Source: Fistulifera solaris
Taxonomy: Eukaryota
NCBI GenBank assembly: GCA_030295235.1
Contig: AP026120.1
Location: 62,001-84,973 of the forward strand
DNA length: 22,973 nt
Direction: 5' to 3'
Shown: in pieces, positions 2,382 to 22,973 of the stretch
How the letters are laid out: each line of letters starts with the position of its first letter
Position numbering within the stretch: the stretch's first letter is position 1
The notes under the pieces: model-generated
Database searches by the model: none
What the model was told of the DNA's origin: nothing
What the model saw: only the letters and a program-made list of their open reading frames with translations
Program-made: the position numbers and the translations under genes

Positions 2382-2430
2382 ATATGAAAATAGGGATTGA
2401 ACCTATAAAATCACCTAATTGATTTTCATA
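2382..2430 (-). ncRNA. tRNA-like element lacking an anticodon arm (t-element-like)
   Basis: Minus strand: TATGAAA (acceptor 5') ATCA-ATTAGG-TGAT (hairpin with GG in loop) TTT ATAGG-TTCAATC-CCTAT (T-arm) TTTCATA (acceptor 3') T. All stems pair perfectly. Confidence 0.75.
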
Positions 2431-2431
2431 T

Positions 2432-3915
2432 TTTTCCAGCTACACGTTCCCGTACAGCTACCTTGTTACGACTTCATCCAAATCGCTAATTTTTCAATCG
2501 GTTAGAACAAAGTCAAACCTTCAAGTAAAACTAACTTTCTGCATGTGACGGGCGGTTTGTACAAGGCTAATTGACATATTCACCGCAACATTCTGATTTG
2601 CGATTACTAGTGATTCCAACTTCATGTAAACGAGTTGCAGCTTACAATCCGAACTGGGAAAACTTTTAGGAGATTAACAAAAATTTAATTTTAGTTACTT
2701 TTTGTAATTTTCATTGTAGCACGTGTGTAGCCCAATTCATAAGGGTCACATTGACTTGGCTTAATTCTTCCTTCCTTCAACTTATAATTGACTGTAACTT
2801 TAAAGCTTTTTCTAAAATATTTTAGAAAAGTAAATAATTAAAGTCAAGAGTTGCGTTCGTTAAGGGAACTAACCAAACATCTCACGACACGAACTGACGA
2901 CAGTCGTGCAACACCTGTAATATTTCATTTTTTTAATTATCAGCAATAAATAAAAATAAAAATTTAATATTATGTCAAGAATTGGTAAGGTTTTGCGCGG
3001 ATTATCGCATTAAACCACATGCTCCACCACTAGTATTAGCCCCCGTCAATTTCTTTGAGTTCCAACCTTGCGATCGTACTCCTCAGGCGGAGTGTTTATA
3101 GCGTTAGCTTAAAAATCTAAATAAATTTTAATTTTTACATTAAATTTCAACACTCATAATTTACAGGTATGGACTACCAGGGTCTCTAATCCTGTTTGCT
3201 ACCCATACTTTCGTCCCTCAACGTCAGTTTTTACCAAAAAGTCGCCTTCGCTAATGGTATTCCTTTATATATTTACAGATTTTACCCTTTCGTATAAAAT
3301 TCTACTTTTCTGTATAAAACTCAAGCAAAGCAGTATTACAAGCTGTTTTAAAGTTGGGCTTTAAATTTTAACAAGTAACTTACTTTACCGTCTACGGACT
3401 CTTTACGCCCAGTCATGATGAATAACGCTTGCCCTTCCCGTATTACCGCGACTGCTGGCACGAGTATTAGCCAGGACTAATTCTTAAGTAATGTCATTAT
3501 CATTCTTAATAAAGAAGTTTACAATCAAAAAAACCGTCTTTCGTTCATTTAGTATTGCTGGATCAGACTTTCGTCCATTGTCCAATATTCCTCACTGCTG
3601 GCCGAAAACTCAGCCTGGACCTTATTTCAGTTCCAGTGTGGTTGATCATCCTCTAAGACCAACTAAAGATCAAAGGCTTGGTAAGCTATTAAATTTACCA
3701 ACTACCTAATCTTACGCAGACCCATCTTTTAGCAGAAATACAAAATAACATCGTAAAACTTTTAAAATATTCATGATTTATGATTTTGTCATGAACTAAA
3801 AGGTAGCAGTCTGCGCTTTCCTCACCCGTTCGCCACGAAAATAATTCCGTTAGACTTGCATGTGTAAAGCATACTAGTAGCGTTCATTCTGAGCCAGAAT
3901 AAAACTCATATTATA
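2432..3915 (-). rRNA. rns: Mitochondrial small-subunit rRNA
   Basis: Reverse complements of universal SSU motifs: GAGTTTTATTCTGGCTCAG near 3890-3907, GTGCCAGCAGTCGCGGTAATAC near 3440-3461, GTACAAACCGCCCGTCAC near 2546-2563, AAGTCGTAACAAGGTAGC near 2457-2474 and the terminal helix ending ~2435. Ends approximate. Confidence 0.97.
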
Positions 3916-4014
3916 ATAACATAAAATATTTATATAAAATTAAGTTAATTTGAATTTAAATCTAATTTTGAATTATGAAATAATGTATAAAAATTTCACA
4001 AAGTTAAAAAATTT

Positions 4015-4608
4015 AAGTAATTTAATTTTAGTACTTGTCAGCTAAAAATTTTACAATTCTTACACTTCAAGCCTATCTATGTAATAGTCTTTTACATTTA
4101 TATAAAAACTGATTTTAAGGTTAATTTCTCGCTTAGATGCTTTCAGCGATTATTTATTACGAATTTAGCTACTCGACAGTGCTATTGGTATAACAATCGA
4201 TTCACCAGAGATTCGCTTTCTCCGGTCCTCTCGTACTAGGATTTAGTCCTTTCAGTTTTCAACACCTACGGTAGATAGGGACCAAACTGTCTCACGACGT
4301 TCTAAACTCAGATCATGTACCGCTTTCATTGGCGAACAGCCAAACCCTTGGAACCACTTACAGCTCCAGGATGCGATAATCCAACATCGAGGTGCCAAAC
4401 CATTCCGTCGATAGGGTCTCTAGAGAATGATTAGCCTGTTATCCCCGGCGTACCTTTTATTCATTGAGCGATAACCGTTTCCACTTAGAATTATCGGATC
4501 ACTATAACCGACTTTCGTCCCTGTTTGATTTGTCAATCTTACAGTCAAGCAAGTATATACTATTGCGCTTTAAAATTGGTATATATCAATTTAAACTTAC
4601 CTTTGTAT

Positions 4609-4653
<45 letters not shown>

Positions 4654-4822
4654 ATTATACACTGTTTTAAATAAATTAGTAATAAAAAATTTTAAGAGTG
4701 GTATTTCAAAGATCGTTTAAGTAATTTGCTTGCGCAAAGACTCATTTATTCAATAGAAACTATTAAATAAATATCAACTCCCACTTATGCTGCACATAAA
4801 AATTTTTATGACAATATATAAC

Positions 4823-4855
<33 letters not shown>

Positions 4856-6765
4856 CCGCAGGTACTCCGCATCTTCACGGAAAATTCAATTTCACTGAGA
4901 TTATGTTGGAGACAGTAGGACAGTCGTTACGCCATTCATGCAGGACACCAATTAAATGCCAAGGAATTTCGCTACCTTAGGACCGTCAGAGTTACAGCCG
5001 CCGTTTACTGGGAGTTAGGATCGAAGCGTAATTACTTCTTTCTTTAATCTTGCAGCACTGGGCAGGCGTCAGTCTCAATACATCTTTTTACAAATTAGCA
5101 GAGACCTGTGTTTTTAATAAACAGTCGCTGTCCTCGATTCTGTGACAACTTTACAAGGTTGCCCTAATAAAGTTACTCCTTCTTCCGAAGTTACGGAGTC
5201 ATTTTGCCGAGTTCCTTCAACATAATTATCTCAAGCGTCTTAATTTACTAAATTTGTCCACCTGTGTCGGTTTAAGTACGGTTTTTAAAATTTAAAGCTA
5301 TTTCTTGAAAATAATATAAAACTTTTATTTTTACCATAAAATAAAAATAATATTTTTATTTTGTCACTATAAATTAATAAAAAAATTTCATTTTTTACCC
5401 ATCGATTAGAACTTTCGTTTTTCTCTTAGAGACCGATTAACTTTTACCAAAACGGATTAGCCTTGTTTTGGAAACCTAGGACTTAAGACGACAATGTTTC
5501 GCACATTGTTTATCGTTACTCATATCAACATTTTCACTCCTGAATTTTCTAAATTATGTTGTCCATAATTTTTCACAAACATACAGGACGTTCTGCTACC
5601 ATTAAACAATTTTTTTTGTTTAATCTACGGTTTCGGTAAATAGTTTAAGTCCCTTTACATTTTCAATGCAAAAAAACTCGACCAATAAGCTGTTACGCTT
5701 TCTTTTGAGGCTGGCTGCTTCTAATCCTACCTATCGGTTGTCATCATTCTTTCACATTTTTTTCACTTAACTATTTTTAAGGACCTTAACCTTTAGTCTG
5801 GGCTGTTTCCCTCTCGACTATAGATCTTAGCATCTATAGTCTGTCTGCTTAAAGTCTTTTAAATTGTATTCGAAGTTTTAATAAACTCAGTAAGATTTTA
5901 CTCCCCATTGCTTATCAAGAGCTCTACCCCAAATTAAAGAAATTTTAAACGCTCTACTTAAATAGATTTCGCAGAAAACCAGCTATCTCTAAGTTTGATT
6001 GGCCTTTCACCCCTAACCACAAGTCATCCCAGTATTTTTCCACATACACGGGTTCGGTCCTCCAATAAGTATTACTACTTGAAATTCAACCAGCTCATGG
6101 TTAGATCACTTAGTTTCGGGTCTTATTTTAGAAACTTAAAAACATTTTAAAATTCAATTTCTTTTCGCCTACGTAGATATTTTACTTAAGCTCGCTACTA
6201 AAATAAACTTGTTGATCCATTATACAAAAGGTACGTTGTCACTTTATAAAGCTACAACTGTTTGTTTGCATTAAAATTCATTATCTTTTCAATTTTACAA
6301 AATCTTTTTCACCTTTCCTTCACAGTACTTTTCACTATCAAACATCAAAAATTTTAGACTTTGAGGGTGGTCCCCCAATATTCAATCAATACACGACTTG
6401 TATCAATTTACTTTAATCAAAAGTTAAAATTAAATAGAATTTTACAGGGTTTTTACCTTCTCTGACTTTTTTAAAAAATTAAATTCTAAATTATAACTTT
6501 TTAGTCTAAGTCGCACATTCGCTCTCCACTACTAATGCTATCTCGGTTGATTTCTTTCTTAGTTACTGAGATGATTCAGTTCACTAAGTTGAATTATGTT
6601 AATTATAAAATTAACACAAGTTTAAATTAAACAAAACTTGGTTTTCCATAATGGGAAATTGTAGTTCTCAGCAAAATATTTTACTCGCTACAAAATTTTG
6701 TTGTTAAACACCCACTTTTATTTTTTTGATGTATAGGAATTCCTTTAATGCATTATAAAACTTTT
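4015..6765 (-). rRNA. rnl: Mitochondrial large-subunit rRNA, no intron visible
   Basis: Sarcin-ricin loop AGTACGAGAGGACCG (~4223-4237), peptidyl-transferase motifs (GGCACCTCGATGT, GGGATAACAGGCT) and the 5'-domain AGTACTGTGAAGGAAAGGTGAAA. Length ~2.75 kb. Ends approximate. Confidence 0.97.
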
Positions 6766-6771
6766 TAACTA

Positions 6772-7094: not shown

Positions 7095-9126
7095 TTATTT
7101 AATACTTTTTTCCTTAGGAGTTGGCTCGTATAGAATAAAAAATGCTGAAACAAAAACTAAAATAAATACTATTCGATCATTAAATAATGAAAACTGTACG
7201 AATGCCTCTCGGAAACCTAAAAGAAAAGTTACTCCCATTAGAATTAAAAAAGTATAATGGTAAATAAATCCTGTTTGCATCTTATGTAAACTAGAACCAA
7301 TTTTTAAAGCAACGCTAGATAAACCGGTAGGACCCAGAATTTCAAAAATACCTCTATCAACAAATTTATAGCTAGTTGAATAACCAAATTTAAAGAAAAA
7401 CTGCGCTAAATATTCGTTATAAATTTTATCAAAATACCATTTTCGATTTAAAAAATTATAAATTTTTTTACCAACAAAAGAAGTTTTTAGTTTGAATAAT
7501 AAATCTGATCTAAATGAATATAAAAAATAAGCTGATAAAACTCCTAATAAACTTAATTTTACAGGTAAAGTTTTATAAAAGGTTGGTATAAATTCAGCGT
7601 CAAATAAATTCATATTAACAGCATTAACATAAATAGCGCTTCCAAAAAACGGAGTTCCAACACCTACGATCATATCTTTAGTATAATATCCTACTAACAT
7701 ACTAGGTATTGATAAACTAGCCAATGCTATACAAATATTCAAGCCTGAATCAGCGGCATAAGAAATTACTTTTTTATAACCGTTAGGCTTCGATAAAAAA
7801 AGTTAGATAGGCTAGTCTAGTGGAATAAAAAGCTGTAAAGAAAGCTCCAACAGTTCCTAAAAAATAACTAAAATAACCAGGCAAACTATATTTACCATAA
7901 GCTACTTCTAAAATTAAATCTTTAGAATAAAAACCGGTTAAAAAAGGAAAACCAATTAATGCTAAAGAACCAATTGTCATCATAGCATAAGTGAAGGGTA
8001 GAAGAGATTTTAAACCACCCATTTTTCGCATATCTTGTTCATCCGCAACAGCATGGATGACTGACCCCGCTCCTAAAAAAAAGCAATGCCTTAAAAAATG
8101 CGTGATTAGATAAATGAAAAAAACCTACTGAATAATTCGATAAACCACATGCAAAAACCATGTAACCTAATTGGCTACAAGTAGAATAAGCTATAACACG
8201 CTTTAAGTCATTTTGCAATAAACCAGTTGTAGACGCAAAAAATGCAGTAAGTGCACCAACTATAGTAATTATTTCTAAAACATTAGGAATAAATTCATAT
8301 AGAAAAGAACTTCGAACAATTAAGAACACACCTGCAGTAACCATCGTAGCAGCATGAATTAACGCAGATACAGGAGTTGGCCCTTCCATGGCATCAGGTA
8401 ACCAAGTATGTAGACCTAACTGAGCTGACTTACCAACAGCTCCTAAAAATAAGAAAACTCCAATAGCTGTTAATAAATTTACATCTAAATTTAAAAAATT
8501 AATAACTTTATCTTTAAAAAACGGAGTTAGAACAGCAACACTTGCATAATCAATCGACTTATAATTAACGAAAATCAAAAAAATTCCCATTAACAAACTA
8601 AAATCTCCGATACGATTTATCAACATTGCTTTTATAGCAGCCTTATTCGCTTGAATTCTAGTAAACCAAAAATTAATTAATAAGTATGAGCACAAACCAA
8701 CACCTTCCCAACCAACAAACATTTGCACAAAATTATCAGCTGTTACTAAAATAAGCATAAAGAAAGTGAATAAAGATAAGTAAGACATGAAACGAGAAAT
8801 ATGAGGATCATGTGACATATATTCGGTAGAATATAAATGAACCAAAAATGAGATAAAAGTAACAACTACACACATAGAGGCAGTCAAACTATCGAACATA
8901 AAACCCCAATCAATATTTAAAACTTCCGAACTAATCCAAGTAGTTAATTTTATATAAACAAAACAACCTGAAAACGCAACTTCATAAAACACAAAAAGTG
9001 ATAATAAAAAGATAAAAATAAACAACTTGTTGTTATTATAGCAGAACCCCAAGATCCTAAATATCTACCGAATAATCCAGCAAGACAAGAACCGATAATA
9101 GATAAAAATACTAATAGTAAATACAT
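7095..9126 (-). CDS. nad5: NADH dehydrogenase subunit 5, three homopolymer frameshifts (~9008, ~8078, ~7797)
   Basis: ATG at 9126 ([24 protein letters not shown]). ORF fragments contain [58 protein letters not shown] and [10 protein letters not shown]. The fragments join by single-base corrections in A/T runs. Confidence 0.96.
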
Positions 9127-9232: not shown

Positions 9233-9256
9233 GATAAAATAAACATTTCTTTAAAA

Positions 9257-10707: not shown

Positions 10708-12399
<1,692 letters not shown>

Positions 12400-12409
12400 T
12401 TATTCGATC

Positions 12410-15400
12410 CTTCTTTTTTTCTCTATAAGGGTTAAATTTTATTTATATTTATGTTCATATTAGTTCTAACTTTGCATTTACTAATTTATTTCATTTTTTT
12501 AATTTTTATAAAATACTTGATTTTTCTAGATAGCTTTAACAATCTAACAAAGTTTAAGTTCCTTTTATAAATGGTAGTTAATGAAATTTATCTTTTTTAC
12601 CCCCTTTTCAATCCCTACCCTTTCTTTTTCCTCTATAAGGGTTAAATTTTATTTGTATTTTTATTCATCTTAATTTTAGCTTTGCAGAGATTAGCTTATC
12701 TCATTTTTTTAATTTACTAAAAGGAAAGTTTAGGTTTTGATTTTTATTAAAATTTTAATCATTTTGGAAATTTTGAATTATGTTTTTCTGTTTTGACCAA
12801 TTCTTTTATTTATTTGCATTTTAGTCTATTTTAGGTATTTTCCAATTTTTTGGCCTAATGTTGATTGGTTTTTCTTTTTCTTCTATAAGAATTGAATTTT
12901 ATTTGTATTTTATTCATCTCAATTTTAGCTTTACAATTCTTAGCTTATTTTATTTTTTAACATGGCGTAGGATAAAACCCACATTTTGATTTTTGCCGCG
13001 ATTTGAGCCTTTAATTTATTGACTCAAATCCTGTAGATTTCATAATTTTTGAATTCTTCTTTTTCCTTATTTTCATTTCCAATTTTGATATATTATTTAG
13101 CCAAAAAATTAAATTGAATTATGTTAACTTAATAGAAATAAGCATGAAATTGAAACATAGATGAGAATGTAATGGTTAAATAAAGATGTAAAAAATTAAT
13201 ACTTTATGCATTTAATATATGTATATTATATATATTTATGTTAATATCCTATGTTTTTATATTAAAGTTATTATATAACAACAGGAACAACTTCTAAAAT
13301 AAGTGTGGGTTATAAATAATTTGATCTTTTCTTCTTAAAACTTTTTTACTCAGTCGTTTCTTTTTTTATAGTATAGGAATATTAAATTTTAGTCATTTTA
13401 ATTTTAACTTTACACTTATTATCCTATATAATACCCTTTTTTGTAAATGATTTTATGTATTGGGGATTCTTATGATTTAAACCTCTATAATTGATCTAGC
13501 TCTAACTTGTTAGCTTCTTTTTGTAGTGTACTTCCCTATATTCCCCCTTTTTCAATTCCTACCCCTTCTTTTTCCTCTATAAGGGTTAAATTTTATTTGT
13601 ATTTTTATTCATCTTAATTTTAGCTTTGCAGAGATTAGCTTATCTCATTTTTTTAATTTACTAAAAGGAAAGTTTAGATTTTGATTTTTATTAAAATTTT
13701 AATCATTTTAGAAATTTTGAATTATGTTTTTCTGTTTTGACCAATTCTTTTATTCATTTGCATTTTAGTCTATTTTAGGTATTTTCCAATTTTTTGGCCT
13801 AATGTTGATTGGTTCTTCTTTTTCTTCTATAAGAATTGAATTTTATTTGTATTTTATTCATCTCAATTTTAGCTTTACAATTCTTAGCTTATTTTATTTT
13901 TTAACATGGCGTAGGATAAAACCCACATTTTGATTTTTGCCGCGATTTGAGCCTTTAATTTACTGACTCAAATCCTGTAGATTTCATAAATTTTGAATTC
14001 TTTTTTTCCTTATTTTCATTTCCAATTTTGATATATTATTTAGCCAAAAAATTAAATTGAATTATGTTAACTTAATAGAAATAAGCATGAAATTGAAACA
14101 TAGATGAGAATGTAATAATTAAATAAAGATGTAAAAATTAATACTTTATACATTTAATATATATATATATTTATGTTAATACCCTATGTTTTTATATTAA
14201 AGTTATTATATAACAATTTTAGTCATTTTAATTTTAACTTTACACTTATTATTCTATATAATACCCTTTTTGGTAAATTACTTTATGTATTGGGATTCCT
14301 ATGATTTAAACCTCTAGAATTGATCTAGCTCTAACTTGTTAGCTTCTTTTTGTAGTGTACTCCCTATATTCCCCCTTTTTCAATTCCTACCCCTTCTTTT
14401 TCCTCTATGAGGGTTAAATTTTATTTGTATTTTTATTCATCTTAATTTTAGCTTTGCAGAGATTAGCTTATCTCATTTTTTTAATTTACTAAAAGGAAAG
14501 TTTAGATTTTGATTTTTATTAAAATTTTAATCATTTTGGAAATTTTGAATTATGTTTTTCTGTTTTGACCAATTCTTTTATTTATTTGTATTTTAGGCTA
14601 TTTTATAGGTATTTTCCACTTTTTTAGCCTAATGCCGATTGGTTCTTCTTTTTCTTCTATAAGGATTGGATTTTATTTGTATTTTATTCATCTCAACTTT
14701 AGCTTTACAATTCTTAGCTTATTTTCTTTTTTAACATGGCATTTAGGATAAAACCCACATTTTGATTTTTGCCATGATTTGAGCCTTTAATTTATTGACT
14801 CAAATCCTGTAGATTTCATAATTTTTGAATTCTTTTTTTCCTTATTTTCATTTCCAATTTTGATATAGTATTTAGCCAAAAATTAAATTGAATTATGTTA
14901 ACTTAATAGAAATAAGCATGAAATTGAAACATAGATGAGAATGTAATAATTAAATAAAGATGTAAAAAATTAATACTTTATGCATTTAATATATGTATAT
15001 TATATATATTTATGTTAATATCCTATGTTTTTATATTAAAGTTATTATATAACAACAGGAACAACTTCTAAAATAAGTGTGGGTTATAAATAATTTGATC
15101 TTTTCTTCTTAAAACTTTTTTACTCAGTCGTTTCTTTTTTTATAGTATAGGAATATTAAATTTTAGTCATTTTAATTTTAACTTTACACTTATTATCCTA
15201 TATAATACCCTTTTTGTAAATGATTTTATGTATTGGGATTCTTATGATTTAAACCTCTATAATTGATCTAGCTCTAACTTGTTAGCTTCTTTTTGTAGTG
15301 TACTTCCCTATATTCCCCCTTTTTCAATTCCTACCCCCTTCTTTTTCCTCTATAAGGGTTAAATTTTATTTGTATTTTTATTCATCTTAATTTTAGCTTT

Positions 15401-15920
15401 GCAGAGATTAGCTTATCTCATTTTTTAATTTACTAAAAGGAAAGTTTAGATTTTGATTTTTATTAAAATTTTAATCATTTTGGAAATTTTGAATTATGTT
15501 TTTCTGTTTTGACCAATTCTCTTATTTATTTGCGTTTTAGTCTATTTTAGGTATTTTCCACTTTTTTGGCCTAATGTTGATTAGTTCTTCTTTTTCTTCT
15601 ATAAGAATTGAATTTTATTTGTATTTTATTCATTTCAATTTTAGCTTTACAATTCTTAGCTTATCTTATTTTTTAACATGGCGTAGGATAAAACCCACAT
15701 TTTGATTTTTGCCGCGATTTGAGCTTTTAATTTATTGACTCAAATCCTGTAGATTTCATAATTTTTGAATTCTTTCTTTTCCTTATTTTCATTTCCAATT
15801 TTGATAATAGTATTTAGCCAAAAATTAAATTGAATTATGTTAACTTAATAGAAATAAGCATGAAATTGAAACATAGATGAGAATGTAATGGTTAAATAAA
15901 GATGTAGAAAATTAATACTT
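12410..15920 (+). repeat. Direct tandem array of long units (periods ~944, 828, 945 bp, last unit truncated), preceded by a degenerate partial copy
   Basis: The marker CTCTAT(A/G)AGGGTTAAATTTTATTT recurs at 12421 (degenerate context), 12631, 13575, 14403 and 15348, with near-identical sequence between the last four. Confidence 0.97.
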
Positions 15921-16011
15921 ATAGGTTAAAATCTAGATGAACAAAGATAAAATTCAACATCTTAAAAACATATAAAAATTGATAAATAGTTGAATTTTGA
16001 ACCTTTGTACA

Positions 16012-18438
16012 AAAGGCTCAAATCATGACAAAAATCAAAATGTGGGTTTTATCCTACGCCATGTTAAAAAATAAGATAAGCTAAGAATTGTAAAGCTAAA
16101 ATTGAAATGAATAAAATACAAATAAAATTCAATTCTTATAGAAGAAAAAGAAGAACTAATCAACATTAGGCTAAAAAAGTGGAAAATACCTAAAATAGAC
16201 TAAAACGCAAATAAATAAGAGAATTGGTCAAAACAGAAAAACATAATTCAAAATTTCCAAAATGATTAAAATTTTAATAAAAATCAAAATCTAAACTTTC
16301 CTTTTAGTAAATTAAAAAAATGAGATAAGCTAATCTCTGCAAAGCTAAAATTAAGATGAATAAAAATACAAATAAAATTTAACCCTTATAGAGGAAAAAG
16401 AAGGGGGGTAGGAATTGAAAAAGGGGGAATATAGGGAAGTACACTACAAAAAGAAGCTAACAAGTTAGAGCTAGATCAATTCTAGAGGTTTAAATCATAG
16501 GAATCTCAATACATAAAGTCATTTACCAAAAGGGTATTATATAGGATAATAAGTGTAAAGTTAAAATTAAAATGACTAAAATTGTTATATAATAACTTTA
16601 ATATAAAAACATAGGGTATTAACATAAATATATATATTAAATGTATAAAGTATTAATTTTTACATCTTTATTTAACCATTACATTCTCATCTATGTTTCA
16701 ATTTCATGCTTATTTTTATTAAGTTAACATAATTCAATTTAATTTTTGGCTAAATAATATATCAAAATTGGAAATGAAAATAAGGAAAAGAAGAATTCAA
16801 AATTTATGAAATCTACAGGATTTGAGTCAATAAATTAAAGGCTCAAATCATGGCAAAAATCAAAATGTGGGTTTTAGCCTAATGTCATGTTAAAAAGAAA
16901 ATAAGCTAAGAATTGTAAAGCTAAAGTTGAGATGAATAAAATACAAATAAAATCCAATCCTTATAGAAGAAAAAGAAGAACCAATCGGCATTAGGCCAAA
17001 AAGTGGAAAATACCTAAAATAGACTAAAATGCAAATGAATAAAAGAATTGGTCAAAACAGAAAAACATAATTCAAAATTTCCAAAATGATTAAAATTTTA
17101 ATAAAAATCAAAATCTAAACTTTCCTTTTAGTAAATTAAAAAAAATGAGATAAGCTAATCTCTGCAAAGCTAAAATTAAGATGAATAAAAATACAAATAA
17201 AATTTAACCCTTATAGAGGAAAAAGAAGGGGTAGGAATTGAAAAGGGGGAATCTAAGGAAAAGAGTACACTACAAAAAGAAGCTAACAAGTTAGAGCTAG
17301 ATCAATTATAGAGGTTTAAATCATAGGAATCTCAATACATAAAGTCATTTACCAAAAGGGTATTATATAGGATAATAAGTGTAAAGTTAAAATTAAAATG
17401 ACTAAAATTTAATATTCTTATACTATACAAAAGAAACGACTGAGTAAAAAGTTTTAAGAAGAAAAGATCAAATTATTTATAATCCACACTTATTTTAGAA
17501 GTTGTTCCTGTTGTTATATAATAACTTTAATATAAAAACATAGGGTATTAACATAAATATATATATTAAATGTATAAAGTATTAATTTTTACATCTTTAT
17601 TTAACCATTACATTCTCATCTATGTTTCAATTTCATGCTTATTTTTATTAAGTTAACATAATTCAATTTAATTTTTGGCTAAATAATATATCAAAATTGG
17701 AAATGAAAATAAGGAAAAGAAGAATTCAAAATTTATGAAATCTACAGGATTTGAGTCAATAAATTAAAGGCTCAAATCATGGCAAAAATCAAAATGTGGG
17801 TTTTAGCCTAATGCCATGTTAAAAAGAAAATAAGCTAAGAATTGTAAAGCTAAAGTTGAGATGAATAAAATTCAAATAAATAAAAGAATTGGTCAAAACA
17901 GAAAAACATAATTCAAAATTTCCAAAATGATTAAAATTTTAATAAAAATCAAAATCTAAACTTTCCTTTTAGTAAATTAAAAAAATGAGATAAGCTAATC
18001 TCTGCAAAGCTAAAATTAAGATGAATAAAAATACAAATAAAATTTAACCCTTATAGAGGAAAAAGAAGGGGTAGGAATTTAAAAAGGGGGAATATAGGGA
18101 GTACACTACAAAAAGAAGCTAACAAGTTAGAGCTAGATCAATTATAGAGGTTTAAATCATAGGAATCTCAATACATAAAGTCATTTACCAAAAGGGTATT
18201 ATATAGGATAATAAATGTAAAGTTAAAATTAAAATGACTAAAATTTAATATTTTTATAATATAAAAAAAGAAACGACTGAGTAAAAAAGTTTTAAGAAGA
18301 AAAGATCAAATTATTTATAGCCCACACTTATTTTAGAGTTGTTCCTGTTGTTATATAATAGCTTTAATATAAAAACATATGGTATTAACATAAATAAAAT
18401 ATATATATATATATATTAAATGTATAAAGTATTAATTT
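16012..18438 (-). repeat. Same repeat units in inverted orientation, about 3 units (periods ~825 and 840 bp)
   Basis: The reverse-complement marker AACCCTTATAGAGG occurs at 16381, 17206 and 18046. The T-rich + strand switches to A-rich across ~15920-16010. Confidence 0.97.
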
Positions 18439-18466
18439 AGAATTTTATTTAAACAAATCTATTAAA

Positions 18467-19655
18467 ATGCCAATTAAAAATAAAGAAAGAGAACTAGTTA
18501 CTTCTTCTGAAAATTTGAAAAATTTACCTGATGAGAATCTGCTTTTTCTCCAAGTTCTAATTTACAAATTAATGAAGAAAATCCAATAGATGTCTATACT
18601 TTGTCAACTAGAAATGATCTTAATTTTAGTTCTTTGTTTAAAAGTCAGACCAATGGTACTGTCGATTTAACTGATGCTATATTTCCAAATTCTGCGCGAC
18701 AAGTACGTTACAAATCTGAAGATGTGGATATTGAAAATTTAAAGACCCACACATTTGAATTGTACCAGTTAAATTTAAAAAAAAGAAGGACAAAGTAACC
18801 AACTTGCTTTTCGTGATTTTACCGAAATTGAAAATTCATCTGAATTTAAGGATTCAGAACTTTTAGCCAAATATAATGCCTTAACTACAGAAGAACCTTA
18901 TCGCACATCATATATTAATTCTCACATTGACGTTTCTTTAATGAGTAATGAAGCTTTTTAACATTAGCAGAGCAATCTAGAATGTTGATAACCAGAATTT
19001 TAGCATTTGTAAAAGTCGATGACTTATCTTTTACATCATTACTACGCTATCTTCGAGTGCTAGCAGATCCAACCTCTATTAACGAACTCGATATCTTTGT
19101 TGATTCAAAGAGTATTTTAAAAAGCTCTTCTTAGTTGTTATAATTTATTTTTATATAGTTCGACTTTCGTAGCTTGTACATTATTTCAAGATAATAATGT
19201 GGATCCTAACCGATTAAAATATGCGGCGATTGCAATGACTTTAATTAAAATACTTCATAATACTAACTTATCAGTAGGTATCGCGAAAACAGAAACTAAT
19301 TACTTTTTAAAACTGTGCGAGAATCATTACAATTAAAATATTACATTCCTAAACTATCAGAGTATATGTTACCCAAGTTACCAGAGTTTTTAAAAACTAG
19401 TTTTAAAAAATGTCGCCTTTTGTAAAACGATCTTGTTTATTTGTTATACAATCGACTAGTCTTGCGATTTGTGGTTATGTGATTAATGAAAATTCAGGCA
19501 ATCTTTTAACGATTTCACAAAATAATACTCATCAGTTAAATCTAAGCTTTACTCAAAGTCGGAATGATTGGTTTGATAAATTTTTAGAAATTTTATTTTT
19601 AGTTTTTCTAATATCTAATGTTTATTTAAATTTGTTAATTCTACACAAATCATAA
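18467..19655 (+). CDS. Hypothetical ORFan A, ~390 aa if about six single-base frameshifts are corrected; may be more than one ORF
   Basis: ATG at 18467 (MPIKNKERELVTSSENL). Successive overlapping open frames (ORF-track pieces 18601..18798 and 19410..19655 plus start-less stretches) switch mostly at A/T runs (~18535, 18780, 18957, 19120, 19308, 19407). Composition is more complex than the flanking repeat. Confidence 0.55.
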
Positions 19656-19656
19656 A

Positions 19657-20410
19657 ATGTCAACTAAAACAATTTTAAAGCCATTCTTTGAGCCAATAGA
19701 AATAATAATCAAAGAATTTTATCTACTTATACTAAATCTTACTCCTTCTTATGCAGTTATAACAAGGTTAATATTTATGAGTATTTTAGTTTCAAAAATT
19801 ATTCTTGTTGTGCCAGGTTCTTCTCTAAAAATTCCTGTTCTTTATAATGCAGCGAGTCTTTATTTAAATGAAATAACAGAAATCTGGTCGGAATTTAAAT
19901 CTTTCTTTTATTCTTTAATAACTTATTTTCAACAAAATTCTGCGTTATATCAAGAAAAAGTTTGCTTGTAGTTGAAAATACTATGTATAAAGAATTATTA
20001 GATTCTTTAAAATTAGAAAATCATACACTAAATTTGGAATTGCGAACTATACAAGAAGCGAATGCGCAATACAAAGCTGAAAATTCATTGTTGTTGCAAG
20101 AATTATCTAGGTCAAAGACTATTAATCAATTCGATAACATTATAAGAATAGCGGGTTCTATTATCGGCGTTGCGAACATTTTTACAAATTGTCTAAATTT
20201 GGGTACAATGTTCTACAATTTTATAATTCCTTCAAAAAATTAGCTGAAGTTAGCTTATCAGTTCAAGATAAAGAATTATTAAAGGACACTCATAATTATG
20301 CAATGAAATCTGTTGAGTCTAAAATATTAGATCAAGCAGCTAATACTAAACAGTATAATATTTTTGACGGTGCAAAGAGTTTATTTGATATTAGTCGTGA
20401 AGGTGGCTAA
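19657..20410 (+). CDS. Hypothetical ORFan B, ~250 aa after two homopolymer corrections; hydrophobic segment plus coiled-coil-like region
   Basis: Three overlapping ORF-track pieces (19657..19971, 19962..20243, 20189..20410) join at the A-runs ~19955-19959 and ~20235-20239. The ATG lies 1 nt after the ORFan A stop (TAA-A-ATG). Confidence 0.65.
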
Positions 20411-20510: not shown

Positions 20511-20582
20511 CATCCCTAATGGGATTTGAACCCATGTTATTGACGTGAAAGGTCAGCGTCCTAACCACTAGACGATAGGGAC
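20511..20582 (-). tRNA. trnE: tRNA-Glu (UUC)
   Basis: GTCCCTA TCGTCTAGTGGTTAGGAC G CTGAC-CTTTCAC-GTCAA...ATGGG-TTCAAAT-CCCAT-TAGGGAT-G. Confidence 0.95.
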
Positions 20583-20615
20583 TTTATTTATAAATAAAAA
20601 TGTATTTTTGGAAAA

Positions 20616-20688
20616 TAAACAATAACGGACTCGAACCGCTAACCTTTTCGTTGTAAGCGAAACACTCTACCAATTGAGTTAATTGTTC
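20616..20688 (-). tRNA. trnV: tRNA-Val (UAC)
   Basis: GAACAAT TAACTCAATTGGTAGAGT G TTTCG-CTTACAA-CGAAA...AGCGG-TTCGAGT-CCGTT-ATTGTTT-A. Confidence 0.95.
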
Positions 20689-20701
20689 TTAAAATTTTTA
20701 A

Positions 20702-22302
20702 CTAAAAAGTTTGTAGCTTTTGCCCTTAGGATTTTTGAGCAATTCGCTAAAACAAGTGATTTGTGACTATATTCATCTTTACCTCCACTAAAAAGTCATC
20801 TAACCAATATTTTAACTTTGTTAATTTTATTTTTGAACGTCTCTGTTTAAAATTAGAGTTGTTGTTCAAGATTACAAAACTTTCATTTTAATACCTAAAT
20901 AAAAGTTTAAATTTGTTAAAGTTTGAGTTGCTTGGTAGTGAAAATAAATATAATTTTTAAAATTTAAAAGCTTTTGGAATTAAAAATAATTAAATTATTA
21001 TCTTTATTGTTTAAAAATGTAACTTGAGTTCTTAAAGATTTTAAAACTCTTCTTAAAATTTGCCAGTTACTTTTGCTGATTTTCGAAAAATAAGTTTTGT
21101 AGTTCTTTTCACAAATCCTTCGGTATTTATAAAAGTTTCTTCATTCTCGTAAAATATAGTAGAAGGTAAATGAAGATAATGACTTAAATTTTTAGAGTTT
21201 GAAAATAATTCGTTGTATAACTCTAAGTTTTTATCGTTACTCTGATTTAAAAATAACGAGTTTTGAGTATTTGTATTTGAATATTTCAGCAGCTTTAACT
21301 CAGTTATTTTTTTAAATTTGAAACATTATTCAGTGAAACATTTAAAAATAGACAGAACTAAAATTACTTAAATCTTTACTATTTAGTGCGCCAAAGTTAT
21401 ACATTGATTGGCTTCCTACTTCAGAAAGTGAAGGACTTAATACATTTATTCCATTCCAAACTTTGTTAAAAACTTGAGCGTATTTTAGTAGATTTAATAA
21501 GTTTTCTGTATTATTTTTATTTCCGTTTCTTTTAACAACTCATAGTTGTAAATTATAACTGGATTTTTGCTGATTTAAACTCTTGGCAAGCCAAATTATT
21601 TCCTTCTAAAATTGTTTTTAATACCGATGTATTTGATCCTAATGAAGATACGGGAAATGTTAAATCAATTAATGAACCTATGATTAAACATTTAAAGTTA
21701 CCTTTAAAGAATCTTTGTCTTAGGTTTAAATTTAAGTAATATCCTTCATATCTTGGGTTACAAGAGATTAACAAACATAATGAAGAGTTTGCTAATCCAG
21801 CTTTACTTGTACTTGAATTAAGCTGAAGACTAGCTTCTAAATCATTATTGTTATTAATATTTTCAGCTCGCTTAATTTTAATGAAAGATTTTTTGCTCTA
21901 AAATATTTAGCAAACTTAGTACTTCAATGCTTAAATTTTCAAAACAATAAGAAAAAATTATTTTTACTCTGTTGAGTTTTACAATATTCAAAGACATATA
22001 ATGTTTCTACTAATTGTTTTAAAATGTTAAACCAAGACTTATTGTTTAAATCTTGATTTTATTTCCATCAGCTTCCCAAATTCCAAATATTCCGTCAAAA
22101 ATTGACGGCCTTTATCAGTTAGCCATGTGTTTTGAGAGTGTATATTAAAATCTGGTTCAATCTGAACAACTTGATCTTTACTTATATACGCTCTTGTATT
22201 TGATCCAAATCCGTCTGTTGGATCAATACTTTCTAACTTTTCAATATCCCATCCTCTTAGTTCAAAAGGAAAACTTTTAAGAGTTAAAGCACCGATTTGT
22301 AA
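20702..22302 (-). CDS. nad11b: NADH dehydrogenase subunit 11, C-terminal part (molybdopterin-fold domain), multiple frameshifts, start codon unclear
   Basis: Reads LQIGALTLKSFPFELRGWDIEKLESIDPTDGFGSNTR...WLTDKGRQ, then LCLLISCNPRYEGYYLNLNLRQR...LPSTIFYENEETFINTEGFVKRT...SLVLANCSKILR. These match divergent NuoG/Nad11 C-terminal motifs. Both ends approximate. Confidence 0.85.
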
Positions 22303-22306
22303 TTAG

Positions 22307-22457
22307 TTATTTTGTTCGTAATTGTTTATAAATATATATAATATACAACATTGCCAAGCTAAATAGTATAAAAGAAGAGTAGAAAGCTTTTACTTTTATC
22401 TAAAACAGATACACTCATTAAAATAATAAAGATGATCCATAATAATAACAGTTTCAT
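22307..22457 (-). CDS. Possible ~49-aa two-helix membrane micro-ORF, needs one T removed at ~22370-22373
   Basis: MKLLLLWIIFIILMSVSVLDKSKSFLLF(F)ILFSLAMLYIIYIYKQLRTK*. The span is 151 nt (50 codons + 1) and fills the nad11a-nad11b gap almost exactly. Confidence 0.4.
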
Positions 22458-22471
22458 GGATGTTTTTAGTT

Positions 22472-22973
22472 TTAATATCGTTTAGATGTTAATGATCCAA
22501 CAGGACATAGATCGATAACGTTTCCTGATAATTCAGAAGATAAAACTAAATCCACGTAAGTACCAATTTCACTCTGTGTTCCACGTCTAAACATACCAAG
22601 TTCTTCAACTCCAGCTATTTCTTTAGCAAATCTTACACATCTAGTACAGTGAATACACCGGGTCATTACTGTTTTAACAATAGGCCCTAAATCTTTATCA
22701 CTTACTATCCGTTTAAATTTATAAAATCGTCTCTTAGTAAAACCAAAGAATAAAGATTGATCTTGTAAATCACAATCTCCTCCTGATCACAAATAGGACA
22801 ATCTAATGGGTGGTTTAATAATAGAAATTCTAAAATATTTTCTCGGGCTTTTTAATTAAAACACTATCATGATAAACACTTGTATTATATAAAGCCGCAC
22901 TAGCGTTTGTAGCACAGGATACAACAGGTTTCATAGAATTCTTTAATTCTACTAGACAAACTCTACAATTTCA
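22472..22973 (-). CDS. nad11a: NADH dehydrogenase subunit 11, N-terminal Fe-S part, 5' end outside the window, frameshifted
   Basis: [49 protein letters not shown] and [11 protein letters not shown] are the Fe-S cysteine motifs of NuoG. Stop at 22474-22472. Confidence 0.95.

Follow-up and report, generated by a model that had tools for sequence, protein, structure and literature searches.

Two facing repeat arrays in the mitochondrial DNA of Fistulifera solaris, probably derived from one inversion at a short inverted microhomology

How does an array of tandem repeats come to face its own mirror image within an organelle genome, and what would the orientation of such a structure mean for the genes beside it? 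The question is raised by a stretch of 22,973 nucleotides (nt) from Fistulifera solaris (GenBank assembly GCA_030295235.1, contig AP026120.1, positions 62,001 to 84,973 of the forward strand), called here, at its full length, the window, in which a non-coding repeat region (12393-18438) lies between trnQ(UUG) and nad11. An original prediction, made from the letters of the window, had described within this region an inverted segment bounded by a 12-bp inverted repeat and possibly invertible, so that it might act as a promoter switch for the small open reading frames (ORFs) located immediately downstream. The answer reached here, to which we would assign a probability of about 65%, is that the facing arrays go back to one inversion whose breakpoints shared a short inverted microhomology; the present orientation would most probably be a fixed, historical state.

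The inverted structure that had been claimed is real, two facing arrays of repeat units being confirmed by repeat search. The units, of 0.83-0.94 kb (832-942 nt), are direct up to 15920 and reverse-complemented from 16012 to 18438. According to the repeat search and the alignment of the units, the left arm (12592-15920, plus strand) consists of four direct blocks, which measure 944, 828, 944, and 613 nt in a register that starts at 12592, the last of them (613 nt) occupying 15308-15920, while the right arm (16012-18438, minus strand) is formed by reverse-complemented blocks of about 423, 826, 836, and 343 nt (a partial R3, R2, and R1). In the register of the 12-mer described below, the units of the left arm are L1 (13205-14146), L2 (14147-14978), and L3 (14979-15920), plus a partial L0, with unit spacings of 942, 832, and 942 in the left arm and of 929 and 850 in the right. 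The two arms can be aligned inversely over up to 1901 nt at 94.8% (57 mismatches), with best stretches of 98-99%, and inverted homology of 95-98% extends over about 2.4 kb in all. On its left edge the array has a degenerate sub-monomer (12393-12505, plus strand), which in the unit alignment is 77% identical to the sub-monomer at 12603-12715, and between the arms there is a center of 91 nt (15921-16011, assigned to the minus strand) that has no 12-mer in common with the units on either strand.

The final bases of the left arm are the 12-mer AAATTAATACTT (15909-15920, plus strand), and its exact reverse complement, AAGTATTAATTT on the plus strand, lies at 18427-18438; both positions were correctly predicted, and they mark the left and the right breakpoint, respectively. 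The inverted match possibly extends, imperfectly, to 15/16 nt, with one T of a homopolymer differing. The window contains four forward copies of the 12-mer (13193, 14135, 14967, and 15909) and three reversed copies (16648, 17577, and 18427), and each of these 4 + 3 copies falls within the array, in agreement with the earlier statement that every unit carries the 12-mer and that several flips are formally possible; the sole copy with one mismatch outside the array is at 9254. An inverted 12-mer is in itself nothing special, because any stretch of unit sequence found in one arm lies inverted in the other. What does go beyond chance is the phase, in that the end of the left arm and the outer end of the right arm fall in the same 12 nt of a unit of ~940 nt, a coincidence that, for two independent ends that close, would have by our own arithmetic a chance of about 25/940, or ~3%. 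The block sum closes exactly: 613 + 343, minus the overlap of 12, gives 944, one full block.

As regards the frequency of such matches, exact inverted 12-mer matches to the units are found at 53 positions, in 26 loci, among the 16,786 non-array positions of the window. This is about one inverted match per 650 nt, or ~0.2 per flank of ~130 nt. In DNA as AT-rich as this, inverted matches of 12 nt to the unit are thus to be expected by chance, and the breakpoints call for no special site. Word counts gave 4 occurrences of TATAAGTA versus 2.96 expected, 4 of TATAAAGTA versus 1.47 expected (4/4 in array units), and 29 of the 12-mer with two mismatches at most versus 30.4 expected, and none of the three is enriched in the window outside the array.

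That the palindrome came from one clean inversion within a direct array, and that a flip of 15921-18426 restores this array in phase, had already been proposed, and both statements are supported. When this flip is made in silico, the inverted BLAST matches fall from 41 (11,244 aligned nt) to 0 and the direct matches rise from 38 to 74, the 12-mer being then found at 13193, 14135, 14967, 15909, 16759, and 17688, and the copy at 18427 being left as the single reversed one. As a control, the breakpoints were moved by 150-300 nt in six further flips, and in four of these 6-13 inverted matches remained. As defined by the in-silico flip, the inverted segment (15921-18426, minus strand) would consist of the former right flank of the array (15921-16011) and 2.7 units. 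A larger inversion taking in the ORFs was also considered, and is rejected, as it would lose the phase continuity at 15920.

The breakpoints are placed where they are because of this phase continuity and because of the orientation of the center. The reverse complement of 15921-15975 aligns with sub-monomer B with a score of 31, while the two junctions as they now stand have scores of 12-25 with the five copies of sub-monomers that were tested; the center resembles a degenerate sub-monomer on the opposite strand, and would therefore belong to the flipped block. Judging from this alignment, it probably represents what was once the right edge of the array, now decayed. Decayed edges are common in tandem arrays, and in the un-flipped array a decayed sub-monomer would stand at either end, at 12393-12505 on the left and in the center sequence on the right, both in the same orientation. 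The original prediction had gone further, reading the center joined to 18427 and beyond as one degenerate monomer; the part of this claim that holds is the resemblance of the center half alone to a sub-monomer, whereas continuity across the old junction is weak, the joined score being 36 versus 31 for the center half alone, a value of 36 that is reached by 3/1000 shuffles. The center also contains a perfect 10-bp inverted repeat (15949-15958 / 15989-15998) with a 30-nt spacer, whose fold has z = -1.27 versus shuffles.

Several observations weigh against this reading. Flips of 16012-18426 and of 15921-18438 likewise give 0 inverted matches, so the match-count test can place neither the left breakpoint in the center nor either breakpoint within the 12-mer. 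A score of 36 is also reached by 40/1000 joins of the center half to random 49-mers of the window. The units L3 and R3 share one variant type and L2 and R2 another, a mirror pattern that also fits a fold-back or a conversion from arm to arm. The frame changes in the genes of the window reveal assembly errors, and the indel differences between units are unreliable. Finally, with respect to a fixed and historical state, the searches with orf251, cox1, and P0122 (a protein discussed below) gave no close relative.

If we nevertheless accept the single inversion, the array would once have been a single direct one with decayed edges, in which about 6.4 units of 0.83-0.94 kb followed one another. An intramolecular inversion of ~2.5 kb (15921-18426) would then have turned around its distal 2.7 units and the old right edge in one piece, the breakpoints lying where the unit and the array's right flank share an inverted microhomology of 12 bp (imperfectly, 15/16 bp). 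The process could have been recombination across this short repeat, or template switching during replication or repair, in either case with no dedicated recombinase. Microhomology-mediated repair had been named originally as an equally plausible alternative to the switch, and it is the better reading of the two. As to its role, the region may be, by analogy, a start zone for replication and/or transcription, as has been proposed for other algae.

The relations among the units bear on the history of the two arms. The units are mosaics whose middle part has three variant types (L0+L1; L2+R1+R2; L3+R3), and the innermost units, L3 and R3, differ at 0/197 and 5/206 sites; identical copies are also found within each arm (L1 versus L3, 0/346; R1 versus R2 tails, 0/173). 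At 17 sites each arm varies between the same two bases, against 2 sites with a fixed difference between the arms, while the polymorphic sites restricted to the left arm number 103, too high a figure because L0 is largely non-homologous at its start. The proportion of 17 shared to 2 fixed indicates that the arms are pieces of one array or variant pool and not separately evolved arrays, and one variant pool supposes either that the inversion is young relative to the diversification of the units or that the arms still exchange sequence.

Such an exchange could take the form of flip-flop isomers, in which homologous recombination from arm to arm would invert the center and shift units between the arms, giving a mixture of isomers in the cell; neither the outer junctions nor what lies upstream of the ORF would be altered. 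This is possible, although rather unlikely, and it can coexist with a single inversion. The length and identity of the aligned arms would permit it, exchange would produce both the shared polymorphisms and the common variant type of the innermost units, and the available text of PMC4226036 cites isomerization across large inverted repeats as established for plastid genomes. However, inverted repeats that recombine often are kept identical, and these arms, at 94.8% over 1901 nt, are not; the copies within an arm, moreover, are closer, and the shared variants may equally predate the inversion. A second possibility, that strand switching at a replication fork copied the left arm into a mirror-image right arm, with no inversion of units already there, accounts for the mirror-symmetric types beside the center (L3/R3; L2/R2) and for the inner ends, which show 98% pairing along 308 nt around a spacer of 283 nt. 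Such a fold-back duplication is nevertheless improbable, because it gives no reason why the outer end of the right arm should fall at the exact unit phase at which the left arm stops, and because the long and short forms do not mirror each other (L3 is long and R3 short, L2 short and R2 long), few tails differ more than those of L2 and R2 (6/173), and the decayed sub-monomer of the center is oriented with the right arm. It is quite improbable, in turn, that the palindrome is an artefact of chimeric or fold-back long reads, or of a wrong join within the repeats. The numerous homopolymer indels (T8 for T7 in nad5, the frame changes in orf386) are typical of unpolished nanopore data, and the preprint on Fistulifera solaris (bioRxiv 10.1101/2021.11.10.468027) mentions, in its available text, one double-length mitochondrial contig that was probably misassembled. 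Yet both arms run on into unique, gene-bearing DNA, both junctions are clean and in phase, and the arms, as would not be expected of a read folded back on itself, differ in length, in unit composition, and by base substitutions (57 mismatches in 1901 nt); the same text describes the same 4+4 layout, which is not independent evidence if the window is that very assembly.

The original proposal of a promoter switch, according to which the 2.5-kb segment would flip to and fro at the 12-mers and so alter the sequence upstream of orf386 and orf251, and hence their expression, is not supported, and we regard it as highly improbable. It is true that an exact 12-bp inverted repeat stands at both ends of the segment, that its right copy lies, as had been stated, 28 nt before an ATG (found at 18467), that orf386 and orf251 are alone on the plus strand, and that the 12-mer in each unit makes multiple flips formally conceivable. 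Against this, no recombinase family was found among the 18 proteins scanned with Pfam (12 + 2 + 4), leaving room for a nuclear-encoded enzyme; the 12-mer has the frequency of a chance-level microhomology; the ~2.4 kb of inverted arm homology would out-compete it as a substrate for recombination; crossovers from arm to arm would flip the center and leave the junction at 18438, beside the ORF, as it is; and the junctions have neither a local hairpin (fold versus shuffles) nor a known RNA (Rfam). Besides, to our knowledge no promoter has been established for diatom mitochondria. A different functional proposal, and a doubtful one, is that the array units carry an outward-firing start of transcription (or of replication), in which case the inversion would have made a bidirectional control region. 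If so, the left arm would drive the minus-strand set from trnQ-cox1 and the flipped right arm would drive orf386-orf251, the two units converging at ~20.45 kb, and the microhomology of 12-16 nt would be two opposed copies of one start element and not a product of chance. The motif TATAAGTA / TATAAAGTA within this microhomology resembles the core of the yeast mitochondrial promoter.

Apart from the inversion, the array contains other traces of rearrangement. Unit R1 lacks about 90 nt near 17880 (17870-17885), the gap being set between two short direct repeats, and a block of ~113 nt is present in L1, L3, R1, and R2 (13275-13390, 15047-15160, 17400-17515, 18245-18350) and missing from L2 and R3; the array has therefore been reshaped also by small deletions at microhomologies. 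Each unit has one ATG-initiated ORF of 43 aa (12858-12989, 13802-13933, and 15574-15705 on the plus strand, 16035-16166 on the minus strand), very hydrophobic and of low complexity, identical in the copies of L3 and R3, and probably spurious; the other ORFs within 12274-18466 are all of 30-43 aa. Rfam gives no match at E<=1 within 12274-18470, and in folding three sub-monomers (z from -1.3 to +0.4), the center, and the right junction do no better than shuffles. Tandem Repeats Finder returned no row, because the longest period it takes there is 500. The cumulative GC skew has its minimum at ~16 kb (about 15500-16500), at the center of the palindrome, where the AT skew also switches sign; this results from the inverted composition of the arms, and such a pattern has been taken by others as an origin of replication.

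With regard to its gene content, the window, which has 28.2% GC over its 22,973 nt, is mitochondrial DNA of a raphid pennate diatom, an assignment drawn from its bacterial-type rnl and rns together with respiratory genes, and from a cox1 that is nearest to those of raphid pennate diatoms. The full-length bacterial-type rnl (4012-6767) and rns (2424-3915) were located on the minus strand with Rfam, and the same strand carries the six tRNA genes of the window (ARAGORN) and all of cox1, cob, nad5, nad6, a nad2/4-type gene, and nad11 (Pfam). The left boundary of the repeat region is trnQ(UUG) (12202-12273, minus strand; ARAGORN, Rfam tRNA), followed by cox1 (10708-12192, minus strand; Pfam COX1 match); its right boundary genes are trnE, trnV, and the frameshifted pieces of nad11 (20511-22973, minus strand; ARAGORN, Rfam, Pfam), and between the array and nad11 there are two lineage-specific ORFs and trnE/trnV. 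The cox1 protein is 84-88% identical to named sequences of Amphora, Haslea, and Navicula, and 95% identical to a metagenome protein. When cox1 was searched in metagenome contigs, 80 loci were found, many of them in GC-rich bacterial contigs, with a best segment identity of 87%, the contig of the 95%-identical cox1 not being among the 80; of the cox1 loci of at least 5 kb that were compared with themselves, none of 41 has a comparable repeat region. The window shares sampled words with 13 metagenome runs, the best share being 0.47, from which no habitat is claimed.

Conserved genes of the window are split into at least two frames, as is the case for nad5 (7095-9052), nad6 (1575-2140), and nad11 (pieces at about 21500-22973), and the frame breaks of nad5 fall in T-runs one base too long (T8 where the frame needs T7). 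The excess length of these runs and the division of genes into frames indicate that the window is an error-rich, unpolished long-read assembly, with errors that resemble nanopore-type homopolymer indels; the broken nad5, nad6, and nad11 are artefacts of these homopolymer errors. This carries a practical warning, as neither the small ORFs nor the indel differences in this window are to be trusted.

The same applies to the ORFs to the right of the array, which had been taken originally for small ORFans and are, instead, two longer genes, orf386 and orf251, broken by single-base assembly indels. The first (18467-19655, plus strand) encodes residues 1-380 of the 386-aa protein P0122 (encoded on an NCBI/JGI contig of 40,042 bp) letter for letter, in 7 runs over 1.13 kb, with a change of frame at 6/6 joins between successive exact runs; its stop is probably near 19620, and the frame is open to 19655 as a result of a late shift. 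The second (19657-20410, plus strand) is distributed among three frames (19657-19971, 19962-20243, and 20189-20410), and P0121, an intact protein of 251 aa, is the only relative of the ORF at 19657-19971 among 1.84 billion representative proteins; it is 85% identical over residues 1-103 and continues through the next two ORFs of the window. To judge from these matches, orf386 and orf251 are real lineage-specific genes. No other gene of the window is on the plus strand, and near 20.45 kb the two meet trnE, trnV, and nad11 in convergent orientation. A Pfam scan assigned no family to either, and orf386 has no Atlas match; the 104-aa piece of orf251 was found at 0 loci in metagenome contigs and 0 in viral contigs, and P0122 at 0 loci in genome contigs and 0 in viral contigs.

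The layout of the array in two orientations is already known and has been published for Fistulifera solaris. A small addition to this is made by the breakpoints at base level and by the exact closure of the block arithmetic. What they contribute is that one inversion, with breakpoints sharing 12 bp, is enough to turn a plain direct array into this layout, which would be a concrete example of microhomology-mediated rearrangement shaping the mitochondrial control regions of algae, and the exact junctions can now be used for tests of isomerization by PCR or long reads.

Among the systems with which the region may be compared, the invertible switches of bacteria (fim, hin, and similar ones) also have a segment between short inverted repeats directly upstream of genes. 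The likeness lies in the short inverted repeats, here of 12 exact bp, that bound a segment located directly upstream of genes; the difference is that here no recombinase gene was found, the repeat is an ordinary word of the tandem unit, and the genome is that of an organelle. Much closer is the Fistulifera solaris mitochondrion as described in the available text of the preprint (bioRxiv 10.1101/2021.11.10.468027), which reports nanopore contigs of about 28% GC in which the interval from ORF251 to trnQ(UUG) holds eight blocks, each of 345-943 bp, four in either orientation, and considers their function unknown and their layout unique among diatoms at that time. The blocks of the window (944, 828, 944, 613 / 423, 826, 836, 343), its orf251, its trnQ(UUG), and its 28.2% GC all agree with that account, the block-by-block agreement being drawn from the text of the preprint alone. 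The same text gives no breakpoints, microhomology, or origin by inversion, and is silent on orf386, which here lies between the array and orf251.

Diatom mitochondrial genomes typically have one large, species-specific, gene-free region of tandem repeats, and in Asterionella formosa, where it occupies the interval from trnQ to nad11, it has been suggested to coincide with an origin of replication (PMC7800273). The region studied here is likewise a single gene-free block between trnQ and nad11 of a diatom mitochondrion, with tandem units without known families. Its orientation differs from that of the regions of Asterionella formosa, Phaeodactylum, Thalassiosira, and Synedra, which, in the accessible parts of the literature, are described as direct arrays or double-hairpin elements, and nothing further on inverted arrays in diatoms appears in the accessible parts of PMC13672107, PMC9551565, PMC4226036, and PMC11767216.

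For arrays that face each other it is necessary to look to other algae, again in so far as the published texts are available. In the cryptophytes Rhodomonas salina, Storeatula, and Teleaulax the tandem arrays form large inverted repeats around an inversion point, and all three of the genomes in that study with inverted repeat regions have genes on both strands (PMC5910586). In Phaeocystis globosa a palindrome stands at the turn of the cumulative GC skew, and transcription proceeds away from the region on both strands (PMC8283788). The palindromes of cryptophytes and haptophytes have hairpin-forming cores, and their lineages and sequences are unrelated to those described here, where the 91-nt center is unique and without a significant fold. 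For those regions, too, microhomology and repeat-mediated rearrangement have been invoked (PMC5910586, PMC8283788), and the skew minimum of the window, as in Phaeocystis globosa, lies at the palindrome, at ~16 kb.

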